Below the pieces are notes generated by a model, which was given only the letters and a program-made list of their open reading frames with translations, had not been told where the DNA came from and did no database searches. Source: Alkanindiges sp. WGS2144 (GTDB lineage: Bacteria > Pseudomonadota > Gammaproteobacteria > Pseudomonadales > Moraxellaceae). From it: a stretch of DNA of 32,000 nucleotides. The position numbers and the translations under genes were made by a program. The stretch is taken from the NCBI RefSeq assembly GCF_043950625.1, contig NZ_CP171007.1. One strand, given 5' to 3'. Of this stretch, positions 1 through 21,127 are shown piece by piece. Each line of letters begins with the position of its first letter. The first letter of the stretch is position 1.

Positions 1-459
1 ATTTTCTACTAGTGCCCGTTGCGTCTGGCTTGCAGGGTTACGGACTGCCCTTCTCCAGTAGTAAACCGTAGCAAGGCTTGCACCATAGGGGCGGTGTAAA
101 TGGTAATGTTCGCCCACCAAGTCCAGGATATGATTATGTAAGAACTTGGGCGACTGGGTTATAAAAATTATGTCATGCCCGGTATGCCGATGCACTTCCA
201 TAGCCTGTACTATTTCATCCTGTGAACGCTGCCCACGGGTTGCTGCAAAGCGTTGATGCTGCTGGGCTTCGTCATAGACGACTATAGAGCCGTCCGGGGT
301 TTCACGCCAATCTTCCGGGCTTTTTTCTATACCCTGAATATTCAGGCCGTCAATATCAGAGTAAATTTCCCGCTTGTTTTCTTTTGCCCACTGAATGATT
401 TTGGATACAGCGAATAGGGTTTTGCCTGATCCGGGCGTGCCAGTAATCAAAATAATCAT
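1..459 (-). CDS. Zot / pI-family filamentous-phage assembly ATPase, N-terminal 153 aa (C-terminus off the left edge)
   Basis: My own translation of the reverse strand from ATG 459..457 gives MIILITGTPGSGKTLFAVSKIIQW...VVYDEAQQ...HRHTGHDIIFITQSP..., with no stop before position 1. It has Walker A GTPGSGKT, Walker B-like VVYDEAQ and the HRHxGxDxxxxTQ motif typical of the Zot family. It is absent from the ORF track because it is edge-truncated. Confidence 0.9.
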   Translation of the reverse strand, partial: MIILITGTPGSGKTLFAVSKIIQWAKENKREIYSDIDGLNIQGIEKSPEDWRETPDGSIVVYDEAQQHQRFAATRGQRSQDEIVQAMEVHRHTGHDIIFITQSPKFLHNHILDLVGEHYHLHRPYGASLATVYYWRRAVRNPASQTQRALVEN

Positions 460-460
460 A

Positions 461-739
461 TCAAACCTTTTTAAGCGTTAAGCCCATACTATTGATAGTT
501 GCCCTGGCAATCACCGCGCCAATAAGAACAGATAGGGCAACGTCACAACCTGATAAACCAAGAAATGACAAGACCACGCCACCATTAGAAAATAAACCAC
601 TTAAACCCTGATTAATGAACTGGCGGACTATAGTTAAGATGATTTGACTGGACATGAGGCCAAGACCAGCACCCAACAACATGCGCTTTACTGCCGAACC
701 TAGCAAAAGCTGACCCACTAAAAACAGTAGTTTTCCCAC
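461..739 (-). CDS. Small integral membrane protein (DUF2523-like / pVI-like minor virion or assembly protein)
   Basis: The ORF 461..808 is open. The likely start is GTG 739..737, preceded by GGAGG (745..749, reverse strand). The product VGKLLFLVGQLLLGS...GLGLMSSQIILTIV... is about 92 aa and very hydrophobic. Its stop lies 1 nt from the Zot ATG. Its position directly upstream of zot matches other inoviruses. Confidence 0.6.
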   Translation of the reverse strand: MGKLLFLVGQLLLGSAVKRMLLGAGLGLMSSQIILTIVRQFINQGLSGLFSNGGVVLSFLGLSGCDVALSVLIGAVIARATINSMGLTLKKV

Positions 740-823
740 GTTTAGGCCTCCTTTTTTTGCAATGGGTGCAGCGTGTGTCCTCGCACGGCTGCGGGCAGCA
801 CGCCGCACCCATTGCTATATTTT

Positions 824-2686
824 TTAGCCATCGGTTGCACCTCCCCGACCTGTACCAGCTACGATATAGGCGCCGAGAATGTAAGCGCTACCAATAACGA
901 AAGGCCGCAGGGACTGCATGAAAGAGCAAAGTGGCTGATAGCTAAATTCCATCGGTACAGCGTTATTCATAATCGTAACGGAAGTAGTAAAAGGGGCTGG
1001 GCACTGGGCACCAAAGTTAATATTTGGATTTTCTACTTCAATTTCTAAAGCTGAGACATTGACGAGCCCATCTTCAGCAGCTGGTGCTTCTTTTACCCAT
1101 TCCCGGTGAGCTTCATCTTTGGCAGTCTGTTCTTTAATAGCTTCTTTGGTCGCTGTTGCGTCAGAGTGGGCAATATCACCAATGCGCGTGTCATTTGCAG
1201 TGTTTTCTTCGGTGGCTTCTTTGTTTGCCACAGCGTCAGAATGTGCCTGTGTACCAATACGGGTATTTTCTGCTGTACCTTCGTTCACTGCGTCTTTTAC
1301 GCCTGTAATAGAGCCTGTAAGTGTATCAACGGCGGAGGTAATGGCATCTTTTATGCCTGTAATGGCATTGATTAAAGAATCAATAGCAGGGTTTACCAGA
1401 TCTTTTATGGCTTCTTTTGCATTGCTAATTGCATCAGAGATTGCAGAACCTTGGTTGACTAGCTCGCCTTTGATTTCAGTAGCAGCGTTATCTATTTTTG
1501 TTCCATTGTTGACCAATTCGCCCTTGATCTCGGTTTTTGCTTGATCGGTTTTTTGGCCGTTATTGACTAGCTCTCCTTTGATTTCAGTAGCTGTATTATT
1601 GAGAGTGTTCACAGCTGAAGCAGCATTAACAACAGCGCCTTTCATCTCATCCATTTTTTGGCCGTTGTTGACAAGCTCGCCTTTCATTTCTTGTGTTGCG
1701 GTAGCTACCCTGGCGGTTTGCTGAACATTTTGTTCAGATGCTGAAGCAGCCCGTCCACTATTCGCATTGCTGATATTCATTGCATTACAGATGAATGAAG
1801 CCCATGAGCAAAATGCGGGGAGCTTGAATTTTTCAGTAGGAGCGTTAGGGTTATTCGGGTCGGTTTTATCTATGTCACGGTCACCCGCTTGATCTTCAAC
1901 GCCTGTATTTGATTCTAATTCACGCGGCACAGATGGCGAAAACGGATAATTGCGCTCATTATCATAATTACGAGGATCAGCAACAGCCTCTATTGCCCTA
2001 CGTGCTGAATCTATTTGCCCTGAAGTCGGGGATTTGGTACCGCCATCTTTATAGTCGGTCACATCTTGCCCATTAGCAGCGTTAACAACATCACGGGCAA
2101 GCTGGTCATAGGGAACATACCTGTCTTTTGGCTCACCTTTAACAGGGTTTATGTCATATTCGGCAACAGAACCAGATTCATAATTTATCTTACACTTTCC
2201 ACCTGACACAACTCCACGACCAGGAGCACCCTGCACTCTTGCCCTAGCATTACAAGCATCCTGCTGTGTAGCAAACACACCAGCCCCAGCGTCATATCCT
2301 GAGACTGTATAATCCCTAATAATTGCCCTATTGTTAGCAGGATCTAATACATAATCAACGCCAGCAAGCAAAGCCTCTACAGCGGCAATAGCGGCAAAAC
2401 CAATAGCCCCACCTTTGCCCATACCATCTAAAATATTCGCAGCAGACACAGGAACACGAGCGAAAGACTTAACAGTTCGAGCAGAACCGTTGATAACCGC
2501 CTGTTTTGTAGCATTTATGACGGCAGTTGAGGACGAAGCAACAACATCCACAACAGTCCAACCACCAAAGGCTGCATTTGCATGAACATACACAGGAAAA
2601 AGAGCTATATAAAATGCCAGGATATAAGTTAAGGCTTTGGCAATAAAATTATTACCGCTAGAACCATTGTTAGAACTATTAGCCAT
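824..2686 (-). CDS. Adsorption / minor coat protein (pIII-like, TspB C-terminal-domain-like), 620 aa
   Basis: It has an N-terminal signal-like segment (ILAFYIALFPVYVHA|NAA), a Cys-containing N-terminal domain, a central helical region with tandem repeats, and a C-terminal segment CPAPF...FSYQPLCSFMQSLRPFVIGSAYILGAYIVAG ending in a TM anchor. It sits between the coat gene and the DUF2523-like/zot genes. The family assignment is by eye only. Confidence 0.75.
   Translation of the reverse strand: MANSSNNGSSGNNFIAKALTYILAFYIALFPVYVHANAAFGGWTVVDVVASSSTAVINATKQAVINGSARTVKSFARVPVSAANILDGMGKGGAIGFAAIAAVEALLAGVDYVLDPANNRAIIRDYTVSGYDAGAGVFATQQDACNARARVQGAPGRGVVSGGKCKINYESGSVAEYDINPVKGEPKDRYVPYDQLARDVVNAANGQDVTDYKDGGTKSPTSGQIDSARRAIEAVADPRNYDNERNYPFSPSVPRELESNTGVEDQAGDRDIDKTDPNNPNAPTEKFKLPAFCSWASFICNAMNISNANSGRAASASEQNVQQTARVATATQEMKGELVNNGQKMDEMKGAVVNAASAVNTLNNTATEIKGELVNNGQKTDQAKTEIKGELVNNGTKIDNAATEIKGELVNQGSAISDAISNAKEAIKDLVNPAIDSLINAITGIKDAITSAVDTLTGSITGVKDAVNEGTAENTRIGTQAHSDAVANKEATEENTANDTRIGDIAHSDATATKEAIKEQTAKDEAHREWVKEAPAAEDGLVNVSALEIEVENPNINFGAQCPAPFTTSVTIMNNAVPMEFSYQPLCSFMQSLRPFVIGSAYILGAYIVAGTGRGGATDG
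1130..1279 (-). repeat. In-frame 75-nt (25-aa) tandem duplication in the adsorption protein gene
   Basis: GTAENTRIGTQAHSDAVANKEATEE (1279..1205) is followed by NTANDTRIGDIAHSDATATKEAIKE (1204..1130). Confidence 0.7.
1427..1693 (-). repeat. In-frame tandem coding repeats: three 54-nt (18-aa) units TEIKGELVNNGxK... plus one degenerate copy
   Basis: The units lie at 1588..1535, 1534..1481 and 1480..1427, with peptides TEIKGELVNNGQKTDQAK / TEIKGELVNNGTKIDNAA / TEIKGELVNQGSAISDAI. A degenerate copy MKGELVNNGQKMDEMKG lies around 1640..1690. Confidence 0.8.
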
Positions 2687-2709
2687 TCCATTCCAAAACC
2701 TTAAATCTA

Positions 2710-2742
2710 ATGAAAAGATAGGGCAGTTTTTTAGACTGCCCT
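2710..2742 (-). terminator. Rho-independent terminator/attenuator downstream of the major coat gene
   Basis: An 8-bp stem AGGGCAGT (2720..2727) pairs with ACTGCCCT (2735..2742) across a 7-nt loop. On the minus strand it is followed by ATCTTTTCAT. It lies in the 71-bp gap between the coat gene stop (2758) and the adsorption gene start (2686). Confidence 0.55.
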
Positions 2743-2757
2743 GTTAGATGCACCCTA

Positions 2758-2997
2758 TTACAGAGCGCGGCGTACCACTTTCCAGCCCTTGATAACCACA
2801 TACAGGGTTAGCATTGCACCACCGATGGCAGCAACGGGTGCAGACAGCCCAGTGATAGAAGTTACAACGTCTCCAACGTCTACCTCACCAGCAGCGAATG
2901 CCGGAGCGGTTGCAGTACCTGCAAGAGCAAAGCCATACATGGCTTTTTGTTTGAGGGTCATCGGGGCTTTGCCCTGGGTTTGGTTTTGAGTGTTCAT
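2758..2997 (-). CDS. Major coat protein (pVIII-like) precursor, 79 aa
   Basis: It has a signal-like leader ending APAFA|AGE. The predicted 44-aa mature peptide has an acidic N-terminus (AGEVDVGDVV), a hydrophobic core (APVAAIGGAMLTLYVVI) and a basic C-terminus (KGWKVVRRAL), which is the classic inovirus coat layout. The RBS AAGGAAG lies 8 nt upstream of the ATG. Confidence 0.8.
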   Translation of the reverse strand: MNTQNQTQGKAPMTLKQKAMYGFALAGTATAPAFAAGEVDVGDVVTSITGLSAPVAAIGGAMLTLYVVIKGWKVVRRAL

Positions 2998-2999
2998 AG

Positions 3000-3194
3000 C
3001 TATGCTTCCTTAATAAATTTAGCTATTAGAGAAAAAAGCCAAGCAGTTACTAAAACGGTTACTATCGCTAGCCCTATTTGTTGTGCCTGCTCAACCGTGA
3101 TACTTGGAAAAAGCTGGGTTTGCTCCTTCCACTGGATACACGTCTGCAACCCGTTTACGTCAGGTACAGTTAGCTGATTACAGACATGAGCCAT
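3000..3194 (-). CDS. Small membrane protein, candidate minor coat protein (pVII/pIX-like position), 64 aa
   Basis: It has one C-terminal TM helix (IGLAIVTVLVTAWLFSLIAKFI) and is tightly packed between the 98-aa gene and the coat gene. No family was recognised. Confidence 0.45.
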   Translation of the reverse strand: MAHVCNQLTVPDVNGLQTCIQWKEQTQLFPSITVEQAQQIGLAIVTVLVTAWLFSLIAKFIKEA

Positions 3195-3197
3195 TCT

Positions 3198-3494
3198 TTA
3201 CGCCTTCACTTGTGGAACTGGTTGAAGGTCAATTAATATGGTTTTTTGGCTTTTGCCATTGGTGACCATTTCAAAGGTCGCTTGAGCTTGAAAGGGATAT
3301 TTCAAACTGGCAATTTTCAGGAAGTTGTCAGACAACCCCCAAGCATACTCAGACCCGGCAAAGCCGACAGCGTCCCCTTTGCTTGTATCCATACCCGTTT
3401 TAACGTAAACCTTTGTACTATCGTATGGCTTGCCCTCAATTTCGCCTTTGCTACGCTTAGCACCAGTCACCACTACGTCAGATTTAAATTGCAT
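3198..3494 (-). CDS. Candidate ssDNA-binding protein (pV-like by size and position), 98 aa
   Basis: This soluble 98-aa protein lies immediately downstream of Rep and upstream of the coat genes. It looks beta-rich (VVVTGAKRSKGEIEGKPYDSTKVYVKTG...). The function is assigned from position and size only. Confidence 0.45.
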   Translation of the reverse strand: MQFKSDVVVTGAKRSKGEIEGKPYDSTKVYVKTGMDTSKGDAVGFAGSEYAWGLSDNFLKIASLKYPFQAQATFEMVTNGKSQKTILIDLQPVPQVKA

Positions 3495-3505
3495 GTTGTT
3501 TCCCT

Positions 3506-4786
3506 CTATGAATAAACAGCGTCAAAATTTGAACGCTGGACAGCCTGAGCAAAGCGGGTATAGCTATACGCTTTGTCAAATTGTTTATTGCGTTCGATTG
3601 AAATAGCCAAGTGATCAATAATCTGTAACCGCTTAGGCACAGCATCAGGATCATTAGCAGTGATAAATTCCATAATCTCGGAATCTGAATAGACTTTTCT
3701 AAACAGGGCAAAGTATTTGCCAAACTGATGTTTAATGATTTCTTTTGCCCGTTGCTGGGTAATCACAGCAGTCTTTTTAACCGTGGCTATTTTTTCGGGT
3801 ATAGCGTACTGGTCAAAGTCAGCAAAACAGGGATAAGCACCCAGAAAATAGGGGCTAGGACTTAATAAAATGTCAAAAGGGATAAAACGGTCATGCCCTT
3901 TAAATTCGACCTCGGCACGTGTCCAGGGGTCATCCTTTGCCCCTTCTTTTTTGCCTTTCTCATAGATACGGCAGAACTTGCCGGATTCACGGGTTCCAAT
4001 GGTTAGGGTTCGACCTTTGCCAGTGATCCGCTTCCAGTTTCCGAGGTGTCCAATATTGGGCATAGTGCCACCGCACCAGAAGCCGCCTAGGCCGTCTTGC
4101 ATGTTTGCCCAATCTACATTGAGATGCCTTCCTTCAAAGTCATCATGTGCAAGGTCAACACGAGTAAGCTTAGGGCGTTGGGCATATTCAGTCAGGAATC
4201 TATAAAGGCGTTCCTGCCAACCACGAGCAGCCAGAGCACAACCAGTCCCGTTGAGCTGAACCGCAACCCGTTTAGAGCTATGCCCCATAAGTACCATGCC
4301 TAGATTGTCTTCTAGCTCCCATGAGTACTTGTAAAAATGCATTCCCTTGTCACGTTTCTTAGCAATGCCAAAGCCAAAAATCTCATGCAGTTCCTGGTTT
4401 AAGTCATCGGCTAATTCATCAAAGGCCTCGGAATCATTGATATCTAGGCCGTTGTAACAATTTCCAAAGGTTTCCACCCCTAAAGCAAAGGTAACCCAAT
4501 CCAGTTGAGCCACTTCACCAGTACAAGGAACGCTATGGATAATTGGTAAATCTGTTCCGTCTTCGGTTTTGACCATGCGAACGTTGTCAAGCTTACGCGG
4601 ATATTTCCAATGCTTTAGGTCGGCAGTTTTGCCAAAAATTTCCGGCTGGTTACCGTCCACTATCGCGGGGATTACGTCAGCTTGTGCCCCCTGTGGTGAT
4701 ACCGTTACCCCCATATTATAAAAGGGGGTAACTTCGGCCTTTACCGTGTGTTTTAACCGGGTCTTGTTTGTTTTTTGATCAGCCAT
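3506..4786 (-). CDS. Rolling-circle replication initiation protein (Rep_trans / RstA / pII-like), 426 aa
   Basis: Size and position fit, and it carries the motif LTRVDLAHDD typical of the Rep_trans family. It is the first large gene of the structural/replication operon. Confidence 0.8.
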   Translation of the reverse strand: MADQKTNKTRLKHTVKAEVTPFYNMGVTVSPQGAQADVIPAIVDGNQPEIFGKTADLKHWKYPRKLDNVRMVKTEDGTDLPIIHSVPCTGEVAQLDWVTFALGVETFGNCYNGLDINDSEAFDELADDLNQELHEIFGFGIAKKRDKGMHFYKYSWELEDNLGMVLMGHSSKRVAVQLNGTGCALAARGWQERLYRFLTEYAQRPKLTRVDLAHDDFEGRHLNVDWANMQDGLGGFWCGGTMPNIGHLGNWKRITGKGRTLTIGTRESGKFCRIYEKGKKEGAKDDPWTRAEVEFKGHDRFIPFDILLSPSPYFLGAYPCFADFDQYAIPEKIATVKKTAVITQQRAKEIIKHQFGKYFALFRKVYSDSEIMEFITANDPDAVPKRLQIIDHLAISIERNKQFDKAYSYTRFAQAVQRSNFDAVYS

Positions 4787-5042
4787 GATTTACCCCGTCA
4801 GACTTATTATCTACATCACCACGACACGCGCACCGCTCGGCCGCGCTCGCTTGCGTCAATCCCCGGTAATGCTTTCCGATCCTCTGCCGTTTGCCAGTCT
4901 TTACACTGGTTTGGCTTTCACTGCGTCCGCCTAAACTGGCGCTCCATTCCTTATCACTTCCCTTCGTCCTACAAGTCTTCCCCGCGCTTGTCTGGCTCGC
5001 GCGGCCTCGCTCTGCTTGGAGGGTTAGGGCGTTATCGTTCAT
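4779..5042 (-). CDS. Hypothetical highly basic low-complexity protein (87 aa); coding status uncertain
   Basis: Its ATG 5042..5040 overlaps the upstream gene's TGA (ATGA), and its stop overlaps the Rep ATG by 8 nt, which suggests translational coupling. However, the region is GC-rich and open in several frames, so it may instead be non-coding (ori/packaging). Confidence 0.3.
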   Translation of the reverse strand: MNDNALTLQAERGRASQTSAGKTCRTKGSDKEWSASLGGRSESQTSVKTGKRQRIGKHYRGLTQASAAERCACRGDVDNKSDGVNHG

Positions 5043-5317
5043 AGCCACGAGTCATCACCCTGTTGATGCAGAATTTCAATAAGAGAGGCATTTTCACTTT
5101 CAAATATGTCAGCCAAGGCCGCTATACGCGCTGGGGAGTAGCCCCAGGCTGCGCAAACAGTTTCTAGCTGCCGTAAACAATGCTCGGTATTTGGTGTAGG
5201 ATTGCCACCTATTACAATTTGCTCGCCATAATTGGCGACAATCTGGGCGACATGATCAAATGCCGCCTGTGCAAACTCATGCTGATCTATATAAACAAAT
5301 GCTTGCATGACATTCAC
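5039..5317 (-). CDS. Hypothetical phage early protein, 92 aa
   Basis: The product is an ordinary-looking soluble sequence (MNVMQAFVYIDQHEFAQAAFDHV...), on the same strand as Rep and immediately upstream. No family was recognised. Confidence 0.5.
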   Translation of the reverse strand: MNVMQAFVYIDQHEFAQAAFDHVAQIVANYGEQIVIGGNPTPNTEHCLRQLETVCAAWGYSPARIAALADIFESENASLIEILHQQGDDSWL

Positions 5318-5331
5318 CAGGGTTAGAAAAA

Positions 5332-5763
5332 ATGAGCCAGTTAGTTTTTTTAGTTATCGGTTTGGCTATAGGGTTTTGGCTTGGGAGAAATTCCAAAACC
5401 CCAGCCAATAAAAAGCCAGTACCGCCACGGGTTAGCTTGACGGCACTGGAAAGACACAAAGCGAAAGTCTTATATTCAAGTGATGCAGACCGAATAAGAG
5501 AGTTAAATTTGCTATCACCCAATGCAGGGCGATTTTTTGCAATGCTTAAAAGGGAAATGCAGCCATTTGACGTAGTGATTAAGGACAGGCGATTCTTTAT
5601 CGTTGATGCAGATAAATTCCCACTTGCCATATTTGAATATAGAGATGGCAAGCAGACACTACGCGCTACGGATACAGAGGACGGTTTGCCAGTGTTCTTG
5701 TATAAGAACCTGCCGCCCAGTAGACAACTGGCGGATGATAAAGAAGCCATTTTTAAACGGTGA
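5332..5763 (+). CDS. Membrane-anchored hypothetical protein, 143 aa, opposite in orientation to the phage early operon; faint DUF2726-like (nuclease-fold) resemblance
   Basis: It has an N-terminal TM helix (LVFLVIGLAIGFWLG) followed by a globular part, LLSPNAGRFFAMLKREMQPFDVV...FFIVDADKFPLAIFEYRDG...GLPVFLY. The competing minus-strand ORF 5277..5771 is Ser/Leu/Cys-rich and looks like antisense noise. The RBS is weak and the codons are AT-rich and rare (AGA/AGG/ATA). Confidence 0.5.
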   Translation: MSQLVFLVIGLAIGFWLGRNSKTPANKKPVPPRVSLTALERHKAKVLYSSDADRIRELNLLSPNAGRFFAMLKREMQPFDVVIKDRRFFIVDADKFPLAIFEYRDGKQTLRATDTEDGLPVFLYKNLPPSRQLADDKEAIFKR

Positions 5764-5770
5764 GCTAACA

Positions 5771-6052
5771 TTACTCAGCCACCAATTCTCTAACTTGAAT
5801 ATCAAGTCTATTAAGGCGCCCAAAGAATTCATGATATTCAAGGTATGAAATCTCGCCAACGTCTTTTAAAGCGTCTAAATAGCCCTGAATTTTAAAAGAG
5901 TGGAAATCTAGGCGGGCTTTACTAGCGAAACTGCCAGTATGTAGCGATATCCGATTTTCATAATCCAAAAAGCGCTGTTCAATCAGAGCCAGAACAGCAG
6001 CATCAGTTTTAAAGAAAATGCCTGATTTTTTAGGTCTTGATGTAACTACCAT
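5771..6052 (-). CDS. Hypothetical phage early protein, 93 aa (first gene downstream of the switch region)
   Basis: ATG 6052..6050 is preceded by AAGGGTGG. The track's start at 6061 is a GTG three codons upstream. The N-terminus KKSGIFFKTDAAVLALIEQRF could be a ribbon-helix-helix strand plus helix, but that is speculative. Confidence 0.5.
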   Translation of the reverse strand: MVVTSRPKKSGIFFKTDAAVLALIEQRFLDYENRISLHTGSFASKARLDFHSFKIQGYLDALKDVGEISYLEYHEFFGRLNRLDIQVRELVAE

Positions 6053-6065
6053 AGCTGCCACCCTT

Positions 6066-6157
6066 GAATTTCCCGATAATGAGAATTACATTCCGTTTTA
6101 GAAATTCCTGTTTATGGAAATTCCAATAAGTGGAAAATACTATTCCAATTTCTGGAA
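6066..6157. promoter_or_regulatory. Operator-like array of GGAA/TTCC half-sites in the divergent intergenic region
   Basis: TTCC occurs at 6070, 6091, 6105, 6121 and 6143. GGAA occurs at 6116, 6132 and 6154. They form the palindromic units GAATTTCC, GAAATTCC, GGAAATTCC, GGAA-N7-TTCC and TTCCA-N5-TGGAA. That is eight half-sites in 92 bp, against about 0.7 expected for a 4-mer plus its complement under uniform composition. Confidence 0.55.
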
Positions 6158-6173
6158 ATCAAGAGGTGCAAAA

Positions 6174-6461
6174 ATGCTTGTAGAATTGATTGATGCTGCT
6201 AAAGATAAGTTAGGAAGCTATGGCAAGGTAGCAAAATCATGCGACGTTAGACCGTCTAGAATATCGGAATGGAAATCAGGTGTAGTAAAACCCAGCCCAT
6301 ACCATATTTGCTTAATGGCTGATATTGCTGGTTTAAATGTAGCAGATACTTTATTTCAGGTATTAAAAAGCCTCGACACTGAACATGCCGAGGCTTTTGA
6401 AATATGGCGTCCCTACGGGGATTCGAACCCCGGTTACCGCCGTGAAAGGGCGATGTCCTAG
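6174..6461 (+). CDS. Cro/CI/YdaS-like helix-turn-helix regulator (candidate prophage repressor); the 3' end reads into tRNA-Glu
   Basis: The RBS AAGAGG (6161..6166) precedes ATG 6174. The product MLVELIDAAKDKLGSYGKVAKSCDVRPSRISEWKSGVVKPSPYHICLMADIAG resembles the xxISxWxxGxxxPS HTH pattern of Cro/YdaS-type regulators. The upstream ATG 6114 lies inside the operator array and is less likely. The last ~19 codons are antisense to the tRNA and are unlikely to be native. Confidence 0.65.
   Translation: MLVELIDAAKDKLGSYGKVAKSCDVRPSRISEWKSGVVKPSPYHICLMADIAGLNVADTLFQVLKSLDTEHAEAFEIWRPYGDSNPGYRRERAMS
6361..6400 (-). terminator. Bidirectional rho-independent terminator just 3' of tRNA-Glu
   Basis: The stem AAAAGCCTCG (6366..6375) pairs with CGAGGCTTTT (6389..6398). 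On the minus strand it is followed by TTTTTAATA, and on the plus strand by TTTTGAAAT. Confidence 0.6.
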
Positions 6462-6480
6462 GCCTCTAGACGATAGGGAC
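6405..6480 (-). tRNA. tRNA-Glu (anticodon UUC), 76 nt with encoded CCA
   Basis: The reverse complement is GTCCCTATCGTCTAGAGGCCTAGGACATCGCCCTTTCACGGCGGTAACCGGGGTTCGAATCCCCGTAGGGACGCCA. It has the cloverleaf arms, anticodon loop CU-UUC-AC and T-loop GGTTCGAATCC, and is near-identical in layout to enterobacterial tRNA-Glu. Confidence 0.95.
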
Positions 6481-6481
6481 T

Positions 6482-6557
6482 TGGTGGAGTTAAGCGGGAT
6501 CGAACCGCTGACCTCTACAATGCCATTGTAGCGCTCTACCAACTGAGCTATAACCCC
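6482..6557 (-). tRNA. tRNA-Ala (anticodon GGC), 76 nt with encoded CCA
   Basis: The reverse complement is GGGGTTATAGCTCAGTTGGTAGAGCGCTACAATGGCATTGTAGAGGTCAGCGGTTCGATCCCGCTTAACTCCACCA. The G3:U70 identity pair is present and the anticodon loop carries GGC. Only 1 nt separates its CCA end from the 5' end of tRNA-Glu. Confidence 0.95.
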
Positions 6558-6612: not shown

Positions 6613-8118
6613 TTAGCTGTCATCTGCTGGATTTTTCGGCGCTTGCAGGCTGTCATTAAGCTTCTGCCAGGCCTTGGTTTCATTTTTACTGACTCCGCCC
6701 AGCACTTCCAGGGCATGGCGCAAGCGGGCAAAGCTTAAGTCAGCCCCTAGAGTCGCCATAGACTCCATCACAGGCGTACTGCTGGTAGACCCGGCAATAG
6801 CAATAAAAAACGCGGGCATAAAGTCACGCAGTTTAATGCCCATTTGCTCAGCCAGCGTCATCAGTGTCTGGCTAATAGTGTCCTTGTTCCAGTTGCTTAA
6901 GTTTTCCAGCCGCCATAAGGCCAGTTGCAGGCTCATGCGTACCTGTTCTTCACTTAATTTTTTGCTGGCAAACTGTTCCCTGCTAATATTGGGCAAACCA
7001 TTAAAGAAAAAGCCCGCCCAGTTAACGGCATCCGATAAGCGATTGATGCGTGGTTGAATGGCTGCTGCAACCTGCTCAAGTTTGTCGCGCGATCCCGCCC
7101 AGTTTAAAATTTTATCCAGCAATTGTGCCGGGCTTAAGCCTTTAATCCACTGACCATTGAGCCAGTTTAACTTTTCTACATCAAAAATTGGCCCACCCAG
7201 AGACACGCGCTTGATATCAAAATTGCCAATCATCTCATCTAGGGTAAATTGTTCGCGTTCATCCGGCATTGACCAGCCCATGCGACCTAAATAATTCAGC
7301 AGTGCTTCAGGCAAAATACCGATATCACGATAATAAGTAATGCTGGTGGGATTTTTGCGCTTGGATAGCTTGGATTTATCCGTGTTTCTTAGCAGCGGCA
7401 TATGGCACAGTACCGGCATATCCCAGCCAAAATACTGGTATAGCAGCTGGTGCTTGGGTGCGGATGGGATCCATTCTTCACCGCGGATCACATGAGTAAT
7501 CTGCATTAAGTGATCATCAACCACGTTGGCCAGATGATAAGTAGGCAGACCATCAGTTTTCAGCAGAATCTGCATATCCACCTGCTGCCAGGGAATTTCA
7601 ATCACGCCGCGTAGCATATCGTCAATTTGACAAATACCGTCTTCGGGGATTTTCATACGGATCACATGGGGTTCACCAGCTGCCAGACGCTGCTGTACTT
7701 CCTGTTCAGAGAGCTTGAGACCCCGGCCATCATATTTGGGTGTTTCGCCACGGGCCTGCTGTTCAGTCCGCATTTGGTCCAGTTCTTCACTGCTGGCAAA
7801 GCAATAAAACGCATGTCCTTTTTGTACCAGCTGTTCGGCGTATTGCCGATAAATGTGCATGCGTTCACTCTGACGATACGGTGCATGCGGCCCACCCACA
7901 TCTGGTCCTTCGCTCCAGCTTAAACCCAGCCAGCGCAGGGAGTTTAGGATCATTTGCTCAGATTCTGGGGTAGAGCGAAGCTGGTCGGTGTCTTCAATTC
8001 TTAAAATAAACTCACCGCCGTGCTGTTTGGCAAAGCACAGGTTAAACAGAGCAATATAGGCAGTACCAACATGCGGAAAGCCGGTTGGGGAAGGTGCAAT
8101 ACGGGTACGGACAGTCAT
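6613..8118 (-). CDS. gltX: Glutamate--tRNA ligase (glutamyl-tRNA synthetase)
   Basis: The 501-aa product has the class I HIGH-type motif [12 protein letters not shown] and the KMSKS-type motif KLSKR. The N-terminus RIAPSPTG...LRIEDTD is typical of GltX. Confidence 0.97.
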
Positions 8119-8391
8119 GGTCAGAATATAATAAATTTCAGGAGTTGGCTGGATTATAGCGAAAAAATAACGTCGCCGCTGAGCGATATGAATATGCTGC
8201 TAACAGACAGGCTGGCAGGAAAAAACAGGCTAAAAATGGTGAAACTATAGGCAACCAGTGTGACAGGATATTAAAATAATCCACCATGCTACAAAAAGTT
8301 GCTTTGCCTGCAAGCAATAGCGCATGATAATGTGCAGCGTTTTGACTGTGTATTTTCTTCGTTTATATTCTTTTTTTTAAAGTGTTATTGT

Positions 8392-9300
8392 ATGTCGCAT
8401 GTTTCGGTGCTACTTGATGAAACCATTGACGCCCTGCTAAATGGGCGTAGCACTGGCGTTTATGTCGATGCTACCTTTGGCCGTGGCGGGCATGCACAGG
8501 CTCTGCTACAACGCCTTGATTCATGCAGTCAGGTTATTGCTTTTGATAAGGATCCACAAGCGCAGGCGGCAGGTGCAGCGTTGCGGGCACAGGATGGGCG
8601 CTTGCTGATGGTACATGCCAGTTTTGGGCAGTTGCAGGAACAGCTTGGCTGTCTTGGTATCACGCAGGTAGATGGTGTGATGGCCGATCTGGGAGTGTCC
8701 TCGCCGCAGCTGGATCAGGCTGAGCGCGGTTTTAGCTTTATGCAGGATGGTCCGCTGGATATGCGTATGGACAATAGCAAAGGCCAGACCGCCGCAGAGT
8801 GGTTACAGGATATTGATGAAGAAGATCTGGCTAATGTGCTGTTTCAGTATGGCGAAGAACGCTATAGTCGCCGCATTGCCAGAGCGATTAAGCAGGTGGG
8901 ATGGATTGAAACCACTGGCCAGCTGGCACAAATTGTCAAGGACGCACATCCCAAATGGGAAAAACACAAGCATCCGGCAACACGCAGTTTTCAGGCCATT
9001 CGGATTGCGGTTAATCATGAGCTGGATGATTTACAGGTATTTTTACCACAGGCAGTACAAGTATTAAAGCCACAGGGAAGGTTGGCAGTGATAAGCTTTC
9101 ATTCACTTGAAGACCGGGCGGTCAAACAGTTTATTCAGCAGCAGTCGAGCCTGCCGGAGCAACAGGGCTGGCTACCGGATGCGCCGGATCAGCGCACCCT
9201 CAAAAAAATTGCCCGGGTTGCCCCTGACCCGCAGGAAGTAAAGGACAATCCCCGCGCCCGCAGTGCATGGTTGCGTGTGGCTGAGCGCTTGGAGCATTAG
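8392..9300 (+). CDS. rsmH: 16S rRNA (cytosine1402-N4)-methyltransferase RsmH (MraW)
   Basis: The product reads MSHVSVLLDETIDAL...DATFGRGGH...GVSSPQLD...RGFSF...DMRMD. The track ORF starts at TTG 8299, but the conserved N-terminus begins at ATG 8392. Confidence 0.95.
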   Translation: MSHVSVLLDETIDALLNGRSTGVYVDATFGRGGHAQALLQRLDSCSQVIAFDKDPQAQAAGAALRAQDGRLLMVHASFGQLQEQLGCLGITQVDGVMADLGVSSPQLDQAERGFSFMQDGPLDMRMDNSKGQTAAEWLQDIDEEDLANVLFQYGEERYSRRIARAIKQVGWIETTGQLAQIVKDAHPKWEKHKHPATRSFQAIRIAVNHELDDLQVFLPQAVQVLKPQGRLAVISFHSLEDRAVKQFIQQQSSLPEQQGWLPDAPDQRTLKKIARVAPDPQEVKDNPRARSAWLRVAERLEH

Positions 9301-9302
9301 GC

Positions 9303-9611
9303 ATGGCAGGCAAACGGCTTGTTCAAAACATAGCATTAAAACACTGGTTATTGCCTGGCTTGCTGGTGGTGGTGCTGGTTGGTAGTGCCATGAGCGTTGT
9401 GCATCAGGTATTCCTGTACCGGGAAGAGTTTAAACAGTTACAGAAGGTCAGGTCACAGCGTGAAAAACTGGATGTAGAGTGGAGCCGTTTGCTGATTGAA
9501 CAGCAGACCTTTGGCGCTACGCCGCAAATTGGCGGACGAGCTGTTATTTCACTACGCATGTATTCGCCGCCGCCATCACAAACGGTGGTGCTGGCTACAC
9601 CTTCCTCGTAG
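9303..9611 (+). CDS. ftsL: Cell division protein FtsL
   Basis: The 102-aa bitopic protein has one TM helix followed by a coiled-coil-like region (EFKQLQKVRSQREKLDVEWSRLLIEQ). It sits between rsmH and ftsI. Confidence 0.85.
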   Translation: MAGKRLVQNIALKHWLLPGLLVVVLVGSAMSVVHQVFLYREEFKQLQKVRSQREKLDVEWSRLLIEQQTFGATPQIGGRAVISLRMYSPPPSQTVVLATPSS

Positions 9612-9627
9612 CAGGGCTTGTGATTCA

Positions 9628-11463
9628 ATGAAAAAAAACATTCTTGCCCCCTTACAAAAAAAACGCACCCGGCAGCGTTCGGTCTCCCAAAAGCCCAGTC
9701 TTGCGGTGGATTTATGGCGCTTTAAGCTGCTATGGGTTGCAGTAGGGCTATTTTTTACCATTCTGGTGAGCCGGGCGTTTTATGTGCAGGTGCTGGATCA
9801 TCAGTTTTTGCAGAAAAAAGCCGATGCCATGATTTTGCGTACCGATACTTTGAAAGCGACCCGAGGTGTCATTAGCGACCGTAACGGGGTGCCGCTTGCC
9901 ATCAGTACACCGATGGTTAATTTGTGGATGGATCCCAAGGAGTATTTTGAGGCGCTGGACGAGCATCGTGAGATTGAGCAAAAACTCAAGCTTGACCCGG
10001 ACAATGCACGGTTAAAACGGCAACTGGCAAAAACCAATTTTGATCTGGATGCGCTGGCTGATGCGATTGGAGAAGATCGCAAAGCGATTAAGGCACAGGT
10101 TGAACAAAAAAGAAAGTCGCGCTATCTGGTACTTAAGCGGCAGTTGCCACCACCTACGGCCAAAGTAGTGCTTAGCCGCAAGTTTCAGTCGGTTTACCCG
10201 GAAAATGACTTTAAACGCTACTATCCGCAGGCACAGCCCAATGCGCAGATTCTTGGCATCACCAACCGTAATGGCATTGGGGTTGAAGGGCTGGAAATGG
10301 CCTGGAATAAAGCGCTGGCAGGTGAAGATGGCAAAATGCGTGTGATGCGTGACCGGCGCGGTAACCGGATCAAGGATGTTGAGCTCATCAAGGCAGAAAC
10401 ACCCGGTAAAGACATTGCCTTAAGTATTGATTCACGCCTGCAATACATTATGTATCGTGAGCTGACCGCCGCAGGAATTGCCAATAATGCCCGCTCGGCA
10501 ACTGCTGTGGCTGTCGATGTAAAAACTGGTGAAATTCTGGCCATGACCAGCTGGCCTTCATTTAATCCCAATGATCCACAAGGGTTAGACAACAAGGATG
10601 CCATGCGCAACCGTGCTGCTATTGATATGTTTGAGCCCGGTTCCACCATGAAACCCATTTCCATGATGGCTGCTTTGGAAACCGGCAAGTGGCAGATTAG
10701 CGATACAGTCAACACCCATCCCGGCAGCATGATGATCGGCAACCACCTGATTCGCGATACCCACAACTACGGTCTGCTGGATATGCGTGGCATTATTGTC
10801 AAATCATCCAACGTGGGAATTGCCAAAATTGCCCTGTCACTGCCATACAGCACCATGCCAACCTTTTTTAAGCGTTTGGGTTATGGACGGCGCACAGCAG
10901 TTAACTTCCCGGGTGAAAGTCCGGGACTGATTCTGCCCTCTTCAAAATGGAAAATCTCGGAAGTAGGCACCATGTCTTACGGCTATAGCTTAAATGCAAC
11001 TGCCATGCAGGTGGCGCAAGCTTATGCCACGGTTGCCAATCATGGAATTTTTCATCCGCTGAGCCTTAAAAAACTGGAACAGGTTCCCAAAGGGGAGCAG
11101 CTCATTGATCCCAAAATTGCCAATGAGGTGCTCAGTATGATGGAAGGAGTGGTTGAACCAGGGGGTACAGCTACACGGGCACAAATTCCGGGCTACCGGG
11201 TAGCAGGTAAAACCGGAACGGCACGTAAACTGGTCAATGGCCGCTACTCTACTACGGAGTACCGGGCGCTGTTTGCCGGTATTGCACCGGTGAGTGATCC
11301 GCGTATTGCCATGGTGGTGGTGGTTGAAAACCCGGTCACCAAGTACGGCGGACTGGCAGCAGCACCGGCTTTTAGTAAAATTATGCAGGAATCCCTGCGC
11401 CTGTTAAATGTACCGCTGGACAAGCCGCTGGATGCTGTATCCCAAGCGGCCAAGGCCTCCTGA
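9628..11463 (+). CDS. ftsI: Peptidoglycan D,D-transpeptidase FtsI (PBP3)
   Basis: It starts at ATG 9628 (MKKNILAPLQKK...), because the track's upstream extension overlaps ftsL. It carries the STMKP (SxxK), SSN and KTGT motifs. Confidence 0.95.
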   Translation: MKKNILAPLQKKRTRQRSVSQKPSLAVDLWRFKLLWVAVGLFFTILVSRAFYVQVLDHQFLQKKADAMILRTDTLKATRGVISDRNGVPLAISTPMVNLWMDPKEYFEALDEHREIEQKLKLDPDNARLKRQLAKTNFDLDALADAIGEDRKAIKAQVEQKRKSRYLVLKRQLPPPTAKVVLSRKFQSVYPENDFKRYYPQAQPNAQILGITNRNGIGVEGLEMAWNKALAGEDGKMRVMRDRRGNRIKDVELIKAETPGKDIALSIDSRLQYIMYRELTAAGIANNARSATAVAVDVKTGEILAMTSWPSFNPNDPQGLDNKDAMRNRAAIDMFEPGSTMKPISMMAALETGKWQISDTVNTHPGSMMIGNHLIRDTHNYGLLDMRGIIVKSSNVGIAKIALSLPYSTMPTFFKRLGYGRRTAVNFPGESPGLILPSSKWKISEVGTMSYGYSLNATAMQVAQAYATVANHGIFHPLSLKKLEQVPKGEQLIDPKIANEVLSMMEGVVEPGGTATRAQIPGYRVAGKTGTARKLVNGRYSTTEYRALFAGIAPVSDPRIAMVVVVENPVTKYGGLAAAPAFSKIMQESLRLLNVPLDKPLDAVSQAAKAS

Positions 11464-11480
11464 TCACCTTTGGATGCTAA

Positions 11481-12998
11481 ATGATCATGCCAATGACCTT
11501 ATCTGAGCTATGGCCTGAACAGGCTCAACCGACCTGGCCAGCGCAGCCTGTGCGTCAACTGGTTTTAGACAGTCGTCAGGTACAGCCGGGTGATGTATTT
11601 GTCGCCCTGAAAGGCAATACCCAGGCTGACCGTATCAGCGAATTTGTGCAGGCCGCTTTAAGCCAGGGTGCAATTGCGATATTGACTGAAGTGCCCCTGT
11701 CCGGTTTTAGCCAGCAAGCGGTGTTTTATTGTCCTGATGTGCGCCAGTGGATAGGAGTATTGACGCAACGCCTGCTACAGGCTCAGTCTGCATGCAGGCT
11801 GCCACAGATTGCTGCTGTGACCGGTACCAATGGTAAAACCACCATCAGCCGCTTACTGGCCGAACTACTGTGGCAAAGTGGTCATAGCAGTGCAGTCATG
11901 GGAACCACAGGCAACGGGATCCTGCCGCATATTGAGCCATCCAGCCATACCACAGTCGATGCGATCCAGTTACAGCAGCAGTTATACCAGTTTGCGTGCG
12001 GGGGTGCGCAATATGTGTGTCTGGAAGCCAGCTCACATGGACTGGATCAGGGCAGGCTGGCTGGCACGCCTGTCAAGCTTGCTATTTTTAGCAACCTGAC
12101 CCGTGATCATCTGGATTATCATGGCACACTGGAAAACTATGCTCAGGCCAAAGCCAAATTATTTGCGTTTGCTAGCCTGGAATATGCCATTTTAAATCAG
12201 GATGATCCGGCATGGCTGACCATGCAAAAGCAGGTCATGCAGCAGCAGAGGCTACCTTTGGTCTGGACCTATTCAGTGCAGCATTCACAGGCGGACTTTT
12301 ATGTACAGCAGGTGAAATATACGCTTGGCGGTGCCCAGCTTGAGCTTAAAACCCCGCTAGGTCTGTTAATGGTGCATAGCCCGCTACTGGGGCATTTTAA
12401 TGTATCCAACCTGATTGCAGTCATTGCCGCAGCCATGGCATTTGGCCTCAGCATCGCGCAAATTCAGCAGGCAGTGCCAAAATTACAGGGCGCACCGGGC
12501 CGTATGCAGGTGGTTCACGATAAATCACGGTTGTTTGTGGTGGATTATGCCCATACGCCTGATGCGCTGACTCAGGTGTTAAGTAGCCTCAGGCATCATC
12601 TGGCAGCCAAAGCCCGCTTATGGGTAGTGTTTGGTTGTGGAGGTAACCGCGATCGTGGCAAGCGCCCTTTAATGACTCAGACTGCGCTGGCACTGGCAGA
12701 CCATGTGGTGCTTACGGCAGATAATCCGCGTCATGAACAGGTCGAACAAATTCTGGTGGACATGATGCAGGGTATGAGTGCCGGCCAGCAGCAGAAACTG
12801 GTGGTACAGCCAGATCGGCGGCTGGCCATTGGCACAGTCGTAAAGCATGCCCAGCCGCAGGATATTGTGGTGATTGCTGGCAAGGGGCATGAGGATTATC
12901 AGGAAATTGATGGGGTGCGGCACTGGTTTGATGATGTGGTGGAATTAAAAGCCGCTTTAAGCTTAAATAATCCACCGCAAAACAGCTATCCGGCCTAG
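11481..12998 (+). CDS. murE: UDP-N-acetylmuramoyl-L-alanyl-D-glutamate--2,6-diaminopimelate ligase
   Basis: It has the Mur ligase P-loop GTNGKTT and the DNPR motif associated with meso-DAP specificity, and sits at the expected dcw position. Confidence 0.95.
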   Translation: MIMPMTLSELWPEQAQPTWPAQPVRQLVLDSRQVQPGDVFVALKGNTQADRISEFVQAALSQGAIAILTEVPLSGFSQQAVFYCPDVRQWIGVLTQRLLQAQSACRLPQIAAVTGTNGKTTISRLLAELLWQSGHSSAVMGTTGNGILPHIEPSSHTTVDAIQLQQQLYQFACGGAQYVCLEASSHGLDQGRLAGTPVKLAIFSNLTRDHLDYHGTLENYAQAKAKLFAFASLEYAILNQDDPAWLTMQKQVMQQQRLPLVWTYSVQHSQADFYVQQVKYTLGGAQLELKTPLGLLMVHSPLLGHFNVSNLIAVIAAAMAFGLSIAQIQQAVPKLQGAPGRMQVVHDKSRLFVVDYAHTPDALTQVLSSLRHHLAAKARLWVVFGCGGNRDRGKRPLMTQTALALADHVVLTADNPRHEQVEQILVDMMQGMSAGQQQKLVVQPDRRLAIGTVVKHAQPQDIVVIAGKGHEDYQEIDGVRHWFDDVVELKAALSLNNPPQNSYPA

Positions 12999-13030
12999 GC
13001 AATTATTTTAAGTATGACAATGAGTAATCC

Positions 13031-15597: not shown

Positions 15598-15641
15598 GCA
15601 AATATTGCTCAACATTACAGCCTATCAGTCAAAAAGCGTAT

Positions 15642-15671
15642 AAAAACAGCTGGTTCATCCAGCTTTTTTTA
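15642..15671 (+). terminator. Rho-independent (bidirectional-looking) terminator after mraY
   Basis: The sequence is AAAAAC-AGCTGG (15648..15653) TTCAT CCAGCT (15659..15664), followed by TTTTTTTAT. Confidence 0.65.
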
Positions 15672-21126: not shown

Positions 21127-21127
21127 C

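Follow-up and report, generated by a model that had tools for sequence, protein, structure and literature searches.

CTXphi has a divergent repressor, after which come RstA (Rep_trans), RstB, Cep, OrfU (pIII), Ace (pVI) and Zot (pI); the phage carries no secretin gene and is integrated by host XerCD at dif. The Neisseria Nf/MDA phages also lack a secretin gene, the documented model being that they depend on the secretin of the host's type IV pilus, and they integrate by means of an IS110-family transposase (PivNM/Irg). The Pf phages (Pf1, Pf4, Pf5; Pf-tRNA-Gly/-Met/-Sec) are temperate and insert at the 3' ends of tRNA genes with their own XerC/D-like tyrosine integrases, which are matched to tRNA sites; integrase type tracks the site and not the structural lineage (PMC7549136). 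More generally, canonical att sites, meaning direct repeats that lie either within a tRNA or outside an integrase gene, were recorded for 582 inovirus prophages by Roux et al. (PMC6813254). For the Acinetobacter Af phages, a transposase or host machinery has been reported, with tandem copies, and the paper mentions neither 'integrase' nor 'tRNA' (PMC11209303). The closest named relative of the element described here is phage M02 (OQ693633), in whose description the words 'integrase', 'tRNA', 'transposase' and 'recombinase' are all absent (PMC12285184).

We analyzed a 32,000-nt stretch of the chromosome of Alkanindiges sp. WGS2144, hereafter the window. Positions 1-6404 very probably constitute about three quarters of an approximately 8.3-kb temperate filamentous (Inoviridae-type) prophage integrated in this chromosome. 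It lies in a tRNA-Glu gene beside gltX and appears to be intact, and it is a new phage of a well-known filamentous type. Of the original prediction, everything open to checking was confirmed. It had proposed an undescribed lineage; this holds for Alkanindiges, but related Acinetobacter filamentous phages (the Af phages and M02) were published in 2024-2025. The same prediction had called the element Nf/MDA- and CTXphi-like, a description that fits the gene order and the TspB C-terminal domain only, whereas the integration mechanism is Pf-like.

Gene content and order

A public contig of 8,315 bp (L001) is 100% identical to window positions 6431-1 and continues 1,884 nt leftwards. Together, window and contig give a reconstructed prophage unit of 8,307 nt. 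The features of the window portion and its host flank are as follows.

1-459, minus: zot/pI morphogenesis ATPase, codons 1-153 (5' part; phrog_197, 5.4e-49)
461-808, minus: pVI-like DUF2523 membrane protein, maximal ORF 115 aa (Pfam DUF2523, 2.7e-8; phrog_1242, 2.4e-15)
824-2686, minus: pIII-like adsorption/minor coat protein, 620 aa (NCBIfam VF_TspB_C_term, 3.1e-17; Pfam Neisseria_TspB at the C-terminus, 1.8e-5; phrog_7568 at the N-terminus, 2.5e-45)
2720-2742, minus: terminator-like hairpin directly following the coat gene (L001 3690-3712; 8-bp stem, then T-rich tail; a consensus match only)
2758-2997, minus: major coat protein precursor (pVIII-like), 79 aa (Pfam Phage_Coat_B, 2.5e-15, 56.7 bits against a cutoff of 23.5)
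3000-3194, minus: 64-aa single-pass membrane protein, TM at aa 40-58 (phrog_13391, 6e-10; phrog_4644 'tail protein', 2e-7)
3198-3494, minus: 98-aa protein immediately after rep (phrog_4994, 5.5e-31; weak match to RstB phrog_929, 0.0037)
3506-4786, minus: Rep_trans rolling-circle replication initiator, 426 aa (Pfam Rep_trans, 4.5e-19; phrog_453, 3e-86)
4779-5048, minus: 89-aa hypothetical ORF upstream of rep, putatively coding (ORF list)
5039-5317, minus: 92-aa small protein (matched by a small ORF immediately upstream of rep both in L084 and in Acinetobacter inovirus loci)
5332-5763, plus: 143-aa membrane-anchored protein, ACF3NA_00775, antisense to the main phage operon (phrog_23897, 2.6e-43)
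5771-6061, minus: 96-aa hypothetical protein (ORF), divergent from the HTH gene
6090-6124, no strand: direct repeat of about 16 nt, 2.4 copies (TRF score 45)
6114-6461, plus: HTH regulator, repressor-like (phrog_4441, 5e-10; phrog_638, 1e-9; weak Pfam HTH_3, 0.0057)
6363-6401, no strand: phage-borne hairpin with T-runs directly after the CCA end of tRNA-Glu (inverted repeat)
6402-6453, minus: attachment core, tRNA-Glu positions 28-76 plus 3 nt (6424-6453, 30 nt, exactly duplicated at the integrase end)
6405-6480, minus: tRNA-Glu(UUC), intact, the integration target on the attL side (ARAGORN)
6482-6557, minus: tRNA-Ala(GGC), host flank (ARAGORN)
6613-8118, minus: gltX, host flank (100% identical to the Alkanindiges sp. 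WGS2144 glutamate--tRNA ligase)

Every ORF of the minus-strand module proposed earlier, from Rep_trans through the 98-aa, 64-aa, Coat_B, 620-aa and DUF2523 proteins to the start of Zot, was found in its predicted place, as was the divergent HTH gene, and HMM searches supported Rep, coat, DUF2523, the TspB C-terminus and Zot. The zot gene runs on to the left of the window; the complete protein (L001 5973-7103) has 376 aa, matches Pfam Zot at 4.4e-23, and shows a Walker A motif (GTPGSGKT, aa 7-14), the sequence VVYDEAQ (aa 60-66) and a TM segment (aa 183-201). Since an AAGGAGG ribosome-binding site precedes the GTG at position 739, the DUF2523 gene most likely starts there (461-739) and would encode 92 rather than 115 aa; its L084 homologue has 92 aa. 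The 620-aa protein displays a signal-like hydrophobic N-terminal segment, central KGELVN(N/Q)G repeats (aa ~335-420) and, at its C-terminus, a membrane anchor of the TspB type. As read from its sequence, the coat precursor has an apparent cleavage site (AFA|AGEVD), and its mature part is acidic at the N-terminus, hydrophobic in the core and basic at the C-terminus. The 64-aa protein, with a 77% identical counterpart in L084, probably belongs to the pVII/pIX class of minor coat proteins.

The 98-aa protein is kept in all relatives, including M02 (orf6). Its gV/RstB position suggests that it is probably an ssDNA-binding protein; structural and sequence checks gave no confirmation of this role. 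The 92-aa protein is 70% identical in L084 and 26-30% in L087 and L088-L090, the 89-aa ORF has a match in L084 only (47%), and the 96-aa protein has no family in profile searches and no homologue in the related loci. Homologues of the HTH protein occur in L087 (45%) and L084 (40%). The 143-aa gene has the same divergent placement in L084, L087 and L088-L090. Its AF2 model (pLDDT 85.6) has no fold match in PDB or BFVD, and its family comprises 230 homologues, mostly from Acinetobacter, with 25 invariant columns.

The order small ORF, Coat_B coat, pIII-like protein with TspB C-terminus, DUF2523 and Zot is shared with the Af phages and M02, as is the host family, Moraxellaceae; M02 likewise has a Rep gene, and the small ORF after it matches the 98-aa protein. 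The best M02 protein matches are Zot (48.8% aa identity), coat (44%), the pIII C-terminus (31%) and the 98-aa protein (24%), and tblastn found no match to M02 Rep. The Zot value falls below the 50% genus line of the M02 paper (PMC12285184). Unlike these phages, the WGS2144 element combines a tyrosine integrase with an att site in tRNA-Glu, and its host genus is Alkanindiges. Gene order and the Rep_trans and Zot matches, the latter including a CTXphi Zot-like PHROG at 2.2e-19, recall CTXphi; however, toxin genes are absent and the RstB match is marginal. Likeness to Nf/MDA lies in the missing secretin gene (no Secretin domain in any phage ORF scanned) and in the TspB domain, whose match covers only ~55 residues at the end of the 620-aa protein.

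Attachment site and related loci

The prediction that the far end and a recombinase would lie left of the window was borne out by L001. Its additional DNA holds the remainder of zot together with an ORF of 74 aa, a XerC/D-like tyrosine integrase of 294 aa (PF00589, 1.3e-28; catalytic-type residues R154, H240, R243, H266 and Y275 by motif search) and, as a direct repeat, the tRNA-Glu 3' portion once more. L001 8275-8315 is 92.7% identical to window 6463-6424, the last 30 nt, at the contig end, being identical; the full att core would be 52 nt. The recombination core reaches into the tRNA (6402-6453), beyond the earlier boundary at 6404. The tRNA-side junction is proven by the window itself. On the integrase side the evidence is L001, which extends 30 nt into the repeat, and the host junction would lie beyond that point; L001 alone is not proof of attR, since an episomal circle plus an empty attB would produce the same k-mer-graph contig end.

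The tRNA-Glu/tRNA-Ala pair lies directly downstream of gltX. In the closest GltX relatives (89% and 85%) tRNA-Glu is absent at the locus, so the best empty-site comparison comes from 86% relatives. These three syntenic loci (L097-L099) have a tRNA-Glu identical at 76/76 positions, followed by a terminator and a thioesterase (4HBT) gene without phage, and their site is an empty attB. The exact 49-nt core is also found beside gltX without a phage gene in 26 Acinetobacter loci. Unoccupied sites, which the original prediction had proposed to look for, are present in both groups.

In two relatives, L083 and L087, int lies beside the tRNA-Glu 3' part through CCA, and its product shares 62-64% identity with the L001 integrase; the L084 integrase is only 39% identical and sits in a different tRNA. 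This is the Pf-like pairing of integrase with site. tRNA-Glu is not among the five Pf insertion-site types (PMC7549136), and a distant-mode DNA search returned no Pf1/Pf4-type (tRNA-integrating) record, its sole Pseudomonas match being a 190-nt stretch of Pf3 zot. The A. baumannii relatives L088-L090 (51% identity in the 143-aa family, 52-53% in Rep) carry a DEDD_Tnp_IS110 transposase. The relatives share a common backbone with varying integration modules: a tRNA-Glu integrase, an other-tRNA integrase or an IS110-family transposase.

Alternative explanations

The element may be a cryptic or domesticated remnant, phage-derived but having lost excision, replication and virion production. The 96-aa and 89-aa ORFs, with few or no relatives, fit this possibility, and the HTH ORF crossing the att core and the terminator-like hairpin could reflect decay. 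We consider it unlikely, however: all hallmark genes are full length without frameshifts, both the Walker A motif and the catalytic-type motifs of the integrase are preserved, the visible att core is identical at 30/30 positions, and genome size and gene set are as in L084 and L087, two elements with tRNA repeats at their boundaries. Integration of the CTXphi type (host XerCD, dif-like site) or Nf/MDA type (IS110-type transposase), with tRNA adjacency a coincidence, might be suggested by the CTXphi-like order, the TspB domain at the pIII C-terminus and the transposase of L088-L090. It is highly improbable given that the 8.3-kb unit contains a tyrosine integrase and no transposase, that the repeat is the tRNA-Glu 3' part, and that related integrases segregate with their tRNAs as described above. 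That the element is instead a non-viral satellite or small integrative plasmid that acquired a few inovirus-like genes is scarcely credible: Rep_trans initiators do occur on rolling-circle plasmids and several small ORFs have no known function, but the morphogenesis set is full and in canonical order (Coat_B, pIII-like, DUF2523, Zot), and the best matches are isolated filamentous phages.

Proposed life cycle and non-coding elements

The element is probably still able to excise, replicate and form virions. A circular replicative form most likely recombined with the 3' part of tRNA-Glu(UUC) through the ~50-nt identical core, catalyzed by the integrase encoded just left of the window; this would have restored an intact tRNA and left a partial copy beside int. 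The repressor-like HTH gene adjoining att, divergent from the 96-aa ORF, may control the lysogeny switch. Rep_trans would initiate rolling-circle replication, the 98-aa protein would probably coat the single strand, and the Zot/pI ATPase would assemble virions at the membrane from Coat_B, two minor proteins (64-aa and DUF2523) and the pIII-like adsorption protein. As the phage genome encodes no secretin, export would need that of the host. A candidate is PilQ (22304-24613), part of the pilMNOPQ cluster previously noted in the window and confirmed at 19412-24613, which may also provide the receptor.

Several non-coding elements accompany these genes. A GC-rich 57-nt hairpin (759-815, minus strand) lies in the interval that separates the pIII-like from the pVI-like gene. 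Its ssDNA fold has an energy of -28.1 kcal/mol (z -6.8), against -24.1 kcal/mol (z -5.7) for the homologous L084 hairpin, with compensatory double changes at 4 of 25 pairs and none broken (0/25). It is a candidate packaging signal, minus-strand origin or expression attenuator. The hairpin after the coat gene has a parallel in the Ff phages, where an intrinsic terminator follows gene VIII. The 6090-6124 repeat covers the last part of the spacer between the HTH and 96-aa genes together with the opening codons of the HTH ORF, and may serve as an operator. At its other end this ORF crosses the att core, so that its last ~19 residues are encoded by tRNA-Glu antisense; the protein has 115 aa in the prophage and 125 aa in the reconstructed attP form. 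The phage hairpin at 6363-6401 takes the place held in the empty site of L097 by a different terminator-like hairpin of its own.

Gene content of the prophage

The first 6,404 nt of the window and their continuation beyond its left edge form a temperate inovirus prophage in tRNA-Glu, apparently intact. The original prediction of a filamentous prophage at the tRNA-Glu gene beside gltX was right overall: the gene set of an inovirus is complete, an integrase and an att repeat accompany it, the target tRNA is intact, and relatives have the site empty. The minus-strand module that it described was reproduced exactly by our ORF list, and this observation is real, far beyond chance. Profile searches matched Rep, the coat, DUF2523, the TspB C-terminus and Zot, as proposed.

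Genes of the prophage in the window, with profile matches (E-values)
6114-6461, plus strand: HTH ORF; phrog_4441 5e-10, phrog_638 1e-9
3506-4786, minus strand: Rep; Pfam Rep_trans 4.5e-19 (69.3 bits, cutoff 29.6), phrog_453 3e-86
3198-3494, minus strand: 98-aa ORF; phrog_4994 5.5e-31, marginal RstB match 0.0037
3000-3194, minus strand: 64-aa ORF; phrog_13391 6e-10, hydrophobic segment at aa 40-58
2758-2997, minus strand: coat, 79 aa; Phage_Coat_B 2.5e-15 (56.7 bits, cutoff 23.5)
824-2686, minus strand: pIII-like protein, 620 aa; TspB C-terminus by Pfam 1.8e-5 and NCBIfam VF_TspB_C_term 3.1e-17
461-808, minus strand: 115-aa ORF; DUF2523 2.7e-8, three hydrophobic stretches in the DUF2523 protein
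left edge-459, minus strand: 5' part of zot, ATG at 459, frame open off the left edge; phrog_197 'Zot-like toxin' 5.4e-49

Intergenic gaps are mostly 2-15 nt, with larger ones after the coat gene and before the probable DUF2523 start. The GC content of these 6.4 kb (41-51%) differs mildly from that over much of the remaining window (about 46-54%). A pI/Zot ATPase, a small coat protein and a rolling-circle initiator are all present, as in Inoviridae-type phages (Tubulavirales), and the compact unit of 8,307 nt, whose replication, structural and assembly modules all point the same way, falls within the expected 5-15 kb. The full 376-aa Zot/pI matches Pfam Zot (4.4e-23) and has a Walker A motif (aa 7-14) and a TM segment (aa 183-201). 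The coat protein is laid out like a classical pVIII: past an apparent signal-peptide cleavage site (AFA|AGEVD), the N-terminus is acidic, the core hydrophobic and the tail (KGWKVVRRAL) basic. The pIII-like protein begins with a signal-like hydrophobic segment; its N-terminal 300 residues match phrog_7568 (2.5e-45) and the TspB match covers the C-terminal ~55 residues only. Between these, at residues ~335-420, lie four repeats that contain KGELVN(N/Q)G and a long stretch rich in Ala, Thr, Asn and Glu. The repeats are visible in the protein, with no tandem repeat in the gene at the DNA level; the pIII of Ff phages has glycine-rich linkers at the matching position. The homologue in the related phage L083 gives weak coiled-coil-type Pfam matches.

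In established inovirus biology, the Rep_trans protein would initiate rolling-circle replication, the 98-aa protein would coat the single-stranded DNA, and Zot/pI would assemble virions at the membrane with the pVI-like, pIII-like and pVIII proteins and a small minor coat protein. The putative ssDNA-binding role of the 98-aa protein is assigned by gene position. As a gene V-type protein it found no support: neither phmmer nor a four-sequence profile matched it to PDB sequences, its single-sequence AF2 model was unusable (pLDDT 39.7), and hhalign to M13 gVp aligned the pentapeptide GKPY alone. Since the phage ORFs scanned contain no Secretin domain, export would use a host secretin. PilQ (22304-24613) is a candidate by analogy with Neisseria MDA phages; the pil genes are tied to the prophage by proximity alone.

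Integrase, att core and target locus

An exact look-up of the 620-aa protein returned a single Logan contig of 8,315 bp, SRR30887707_47 (L001), whose positions 1-6431 equal window 6431-1 at 100% identity and which runs on for another 1,884 nt to the left of the window. As expected for a prophage cut by that edge, this extension carries the rest of zot, a tyrosine integrase and a repeat of the tRNA-Glu 3' portion: it encodes the complete zot (376 aa), a 74-aa ORF and a 294-aa tyrosine recombinase. The recombinase is phage-encoded, as in tRNA-integrating temperate inoviruses. It matches PF00589 (1.3e-28) and, over its full length, the XerC/XerD models at scores far below their cutoffs; a motif search places catalytic-type residues at R154, H240, R243, H266 and Y275.

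The insertion site comprises the following host genes.

6405-6480, minus strand: tRNA-Glu(UUC), intact (ARAGORN)
6482-6557, minus strand: tRNA-Ala(GGC) (ARAGORN)
6613-8118, minus strand: gltX, upstream of both tRNAs

Thirty nucleotides past the integrase stop, L001 carries a 41-nt match (92.7%) to tRNA-Glu (window 6463-6424). The final 30 nt of this match, at the very end of the contig, are identical; the other 11 match imperfectly. A shared end of 30 nt is presumably the outcome of a k=31 assembly graph at a repeat, a value that we assume for the Logan assembler. By this logic, the first 30 nt of L001 are the other end of the repeat, which gives a putative identical core of 52 nt (window 6402-6453) and the unit length of 8,307 nt. 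The core would consist of tRNA positions 28-76 plus 3 nt. The 3' portion of the tRNA is directly repeated while the tRNA itself stays intact, the integrase-side repeat being read to the end of L001. Partial tRNA-Glu copies are full-length in the related phages L083 and L087.

Proteins 100% identical to Zot, GltX and the 143-aa protein of the prophage locus are assigned at NCBI to Alkanindiges sp. WGS2144, where they lie on a contig of 2.38 Mb. A scan of genome contigs with GltX gave, among the matches listed, none above 83% identity and no relative at the Alkanindiges level; closer host relatives (L097-L099, L091 and L092) came from a protein search. Among the matches listed, gltX-tRNA-Ala-tRNA-Glu is the usual arrangement in Acinetobacter, Aquirhabdus and Fluviicoccus, and none of the 14 phage proteins occurs in the 80 loci found with GltX; the exceptions are two weak integrase matches in Cellvibrionaceae-type loci and chance matches to the end of the HTH ORF that the tRNA encodes. 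The unoccupied target foreseen in related genomes is there. An exact 49-nt core lies about 200 nt after gltX in at least 26 Acinetobacter loci. In L097-L099, from wastewater metagenomes (GltX 86%, rsmH-gltX adjacent as in the window), tRNA-Ala is followed after 58 nt by a tRNA-Glu identical to the window's at 76/76 positions, a terminator hairpin of their own, a gene for a 4HBT thioesterase, and hemD and hemC in that order; the phage is absent, and the attB at this tRNA-Glu is empty.

In relatives, the gltX-tRNA locus is a hot spot for insertions. In L091 (GltX 89%) and L092 (85%), tRNA-Glu is missing from the locus and other cargo follows tRNA-Ala: a 394-aa integrase of the P4 type, accompanied by DUF2290 and a UvrD-like helicase, in L091 (3360-8892), and HamA with a DEAD helicase (Hachiman-like) in L092 (11573-15445). 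A mannitol dehydrogenase fusion gene lies between the two tRNAs in L094 (4088-7021). The spacer between tRNA-Ala and tRNA-Glu is 1 nt in the window (6480-6482), 58 nt in L097 and ~24 to ~118 nt in the Acinetobacter loci checked. In several Acinetobacter species (L004, L006, L011, L025, L030 and L032; at about 11.7 kb and 13.5-14.7 kb), gltX is followed by three complete tRNA-Glu genes, one following tRNA-Ala and two 1.8-2.8 kb further. The window from 8299 to 27346 is ordinary Moraxellaceae core genome: Pfam confirms rsmH, an RlmA-like methyltransferase, ponA and pilMNOPQ, and by order and size we take other ORFs to be ftsL/ftsI, murE, murF and mraY, and two more to be aroK and aroB.

Related phages and exchange of integration modules

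Temperate inoviruses in tRNA genes are a well-documented kind, the Pf phages being an example, and one more is no surprise to a specialist; 582 att-bounded inovirus prophages have been catalogued (PMC6813254). Descent from the Pf lineage itself is not indicated, as the distant DNA search returned no Pf1 or Pf4 record and only a 190-nt stretch of Pf3 zot. As to the likeness to Neisseria Nf/MDA phages in the original prediction, the match to their TspB-type adsorption protein covers the C-terminal ~55 residues, the N-terminal 300 matching phrog_7568 instead, and integration differs: Nf/MDA use an IS110-family (PivNM/Irg) transposase, which is absent from the ORFs of the 8.3-kb unit. The likeness to CTXphi did not extend to integration either: whereas that group integrates via host XerCD at a dif-like site, this phage would do so via its own integrase at the tRNA-Glu att core.

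The best match in the GenBank phage collection, and the sole Acinetobacter inovirus matched there, is the filamentous Acinetobacter phage M02 (Zot 48.8%, coat 44% over 41 aa, pIII C-terminus 31%). M02 has no match for Rep or Int, and DNA similarity is limited to ~300 nt of zot. It also ranks first in a Zot tblastn, which returned eight Pseudomonas records, all below 60% identity. Genera have been delimited by Zot and CoaB similarities of 50% or more (PMC11209303). Zot (48.8%) and the coat (44%) fall below this line for the Af and M02 genera, a comparison made with M02 among the Af groups. The prophage appears new for the host genus, with a Zot identity below the line used for genera, and our literature search on Alkanindiges and prophage found no description of an Alkanindiges inovirus. 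To our knowledge, the integration modes reported so far for filamentous phages of Moraxellaceae are transposases or host recombination; the prophage adds a mode based on a tyrosine integrase and tRNA-Glu. The Af phage paper mentions integration by a transposase or in a host XerCD-like manner, the words 'integrase' and 'tRNA' being absent from its text (PMC11209303), and the M02 paper mentions none of integrase, tRNA, transposase and recombinase (PMC12285184).

Relatives of the prophage (amino acid identity to the window phage)
L084, Logan, 8,201 bp: Zot 78%, Int 39%, 98-aa protein 73%, coat 72%, 143-aa protein 71%, Rep 55%
L083, IMG/VR, 8,467 bp: Zot 39%, Int 62%, Rep 47%; 3' part of tRNA-Glu, up to and including CCA, beside int
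L087, Logan, 8,580 bp: Zot 33%, Int 64%, Rep 40%; 3' part of tRNA-Glu, up to and including CCA, beside int
L088-L090, A. baumannii-type prophages: Zot 32-33%, Int none, Rep 52-53%, 143-aa protein 51%

In IMG/VR, Zot retrieved no relative and the integrase retrieved one, L083. L084, structurally a close relative, is bounded (1-30 and 8172-8201) by the 3' end of another tRNA (...GTGGGTTCGAATCCCGCCGGGCGCGCCA), and L088-L090 carry a DEDD_Tnp_IS110 transposase at the position of int, which the window phage does not. Across these phages, the Int and Zot identities indicate that the integrase tracks the target tRNA rather than the structural module. In Pf phages, too, integrase type goes with insertion site (PMC7549136). 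The four relatives compared show integration modules swapped on a common backbone, which helps in drawing prophage borders and in inovirus taxonomy. The 3' half of the boundary tRNA of L084 shows a long variable arm; it is possibly of the Ser or Sec type.

We tentatively read the whole as a new Alkanindiges inovirus genus on a Moraxellaceae backbone with interchangeable integration modules (tRNA-Glu integrase, other-tRNA integrase or IS110 transposase) and two uncharacterised conserved elements, a 143-aa protein and a 57-nt hairpin; that all these parts hold jointly is possible, if somewhat doubtful.

Conserved elements and regulation

The plus-strand 143-aa gene (5332-5763, ACF3NA_00775) is a true gene, with 230 homologues, 25 invariant columns and a confident AF2 model (pLDDT 85.6). 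Its product is membrane-anchored by an N-terminal TM helix. The gene lies antisense inside the early operon; Acinetobacter inoviruses keep it, in every case in divergent orientation to the rep operon. The protein matches no Pfam or NCBIfam family, and in Foldseek searches of PDB and BFVD no hit fell below E = 0.005 (TM about 0.3). A DUF2726 or PD-(D/E)xK-like nuclease, suggested by a D..E.R motif, found support in none of these searches. The protein sits at the divergent 'immunity' position and may be a factor of a new kind for superinfection exclusion or lysogeny control. Logan calls a 164-aa Ser/Leu-rich ORF on the opposite strand (5277-5771, minus strand), likely a mis-call, antisense as it is to the well-supported 143-aa gene.

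The second element is a 57-nt hairpin (window 759-815, L001 5617-5673; -28.1 kcal/mol, z -6.8) in a gap of ~84 nt between the pIII-like and DUF2523 genes. Its counterpart in L084 (5521-5574) differs by four compensatory pair changes with no broken pair; the gap is absent from L083, L087 and L088. Possible roles for the hairpin are those of packaging signal, minus-strand origin and attenuator; an Rfam scan of the 8.3-kb unit returned no match. On the hairpin's 3' side follow an A-run, AAGGAGG and a GTG that is likely the true start of a 92-aa DUF2523 protein. The 143-aa family and this conserved hairpin are cheap experimental leads.

The HTH gene beside att, the 96-aa ORF divergent from it and a direct repeat of 16 nt (6090-6124) may together form a lysogeny switch. 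The HTH ORF has no stop before the att core, and its last ~19 residues are antisense tRNA-Glu. Because it reads through the core, integration alters these last residues: the ORF encodes 115 aa in the integrated form and 125 aa in the reconstructed circular form. A 130-aa ORF across att in L083, considered as a homologue, translates to nonsense. The HTH ORF also passes through a terminator-like hairpin with T-runs (6363-6401), which directly follows tRNA-Glu and is phage DNA. As this hairpin occupies the place of L097's own terminator-like hairpin (9773-9815), the prophage may provide the terminator of the tRNA operon.
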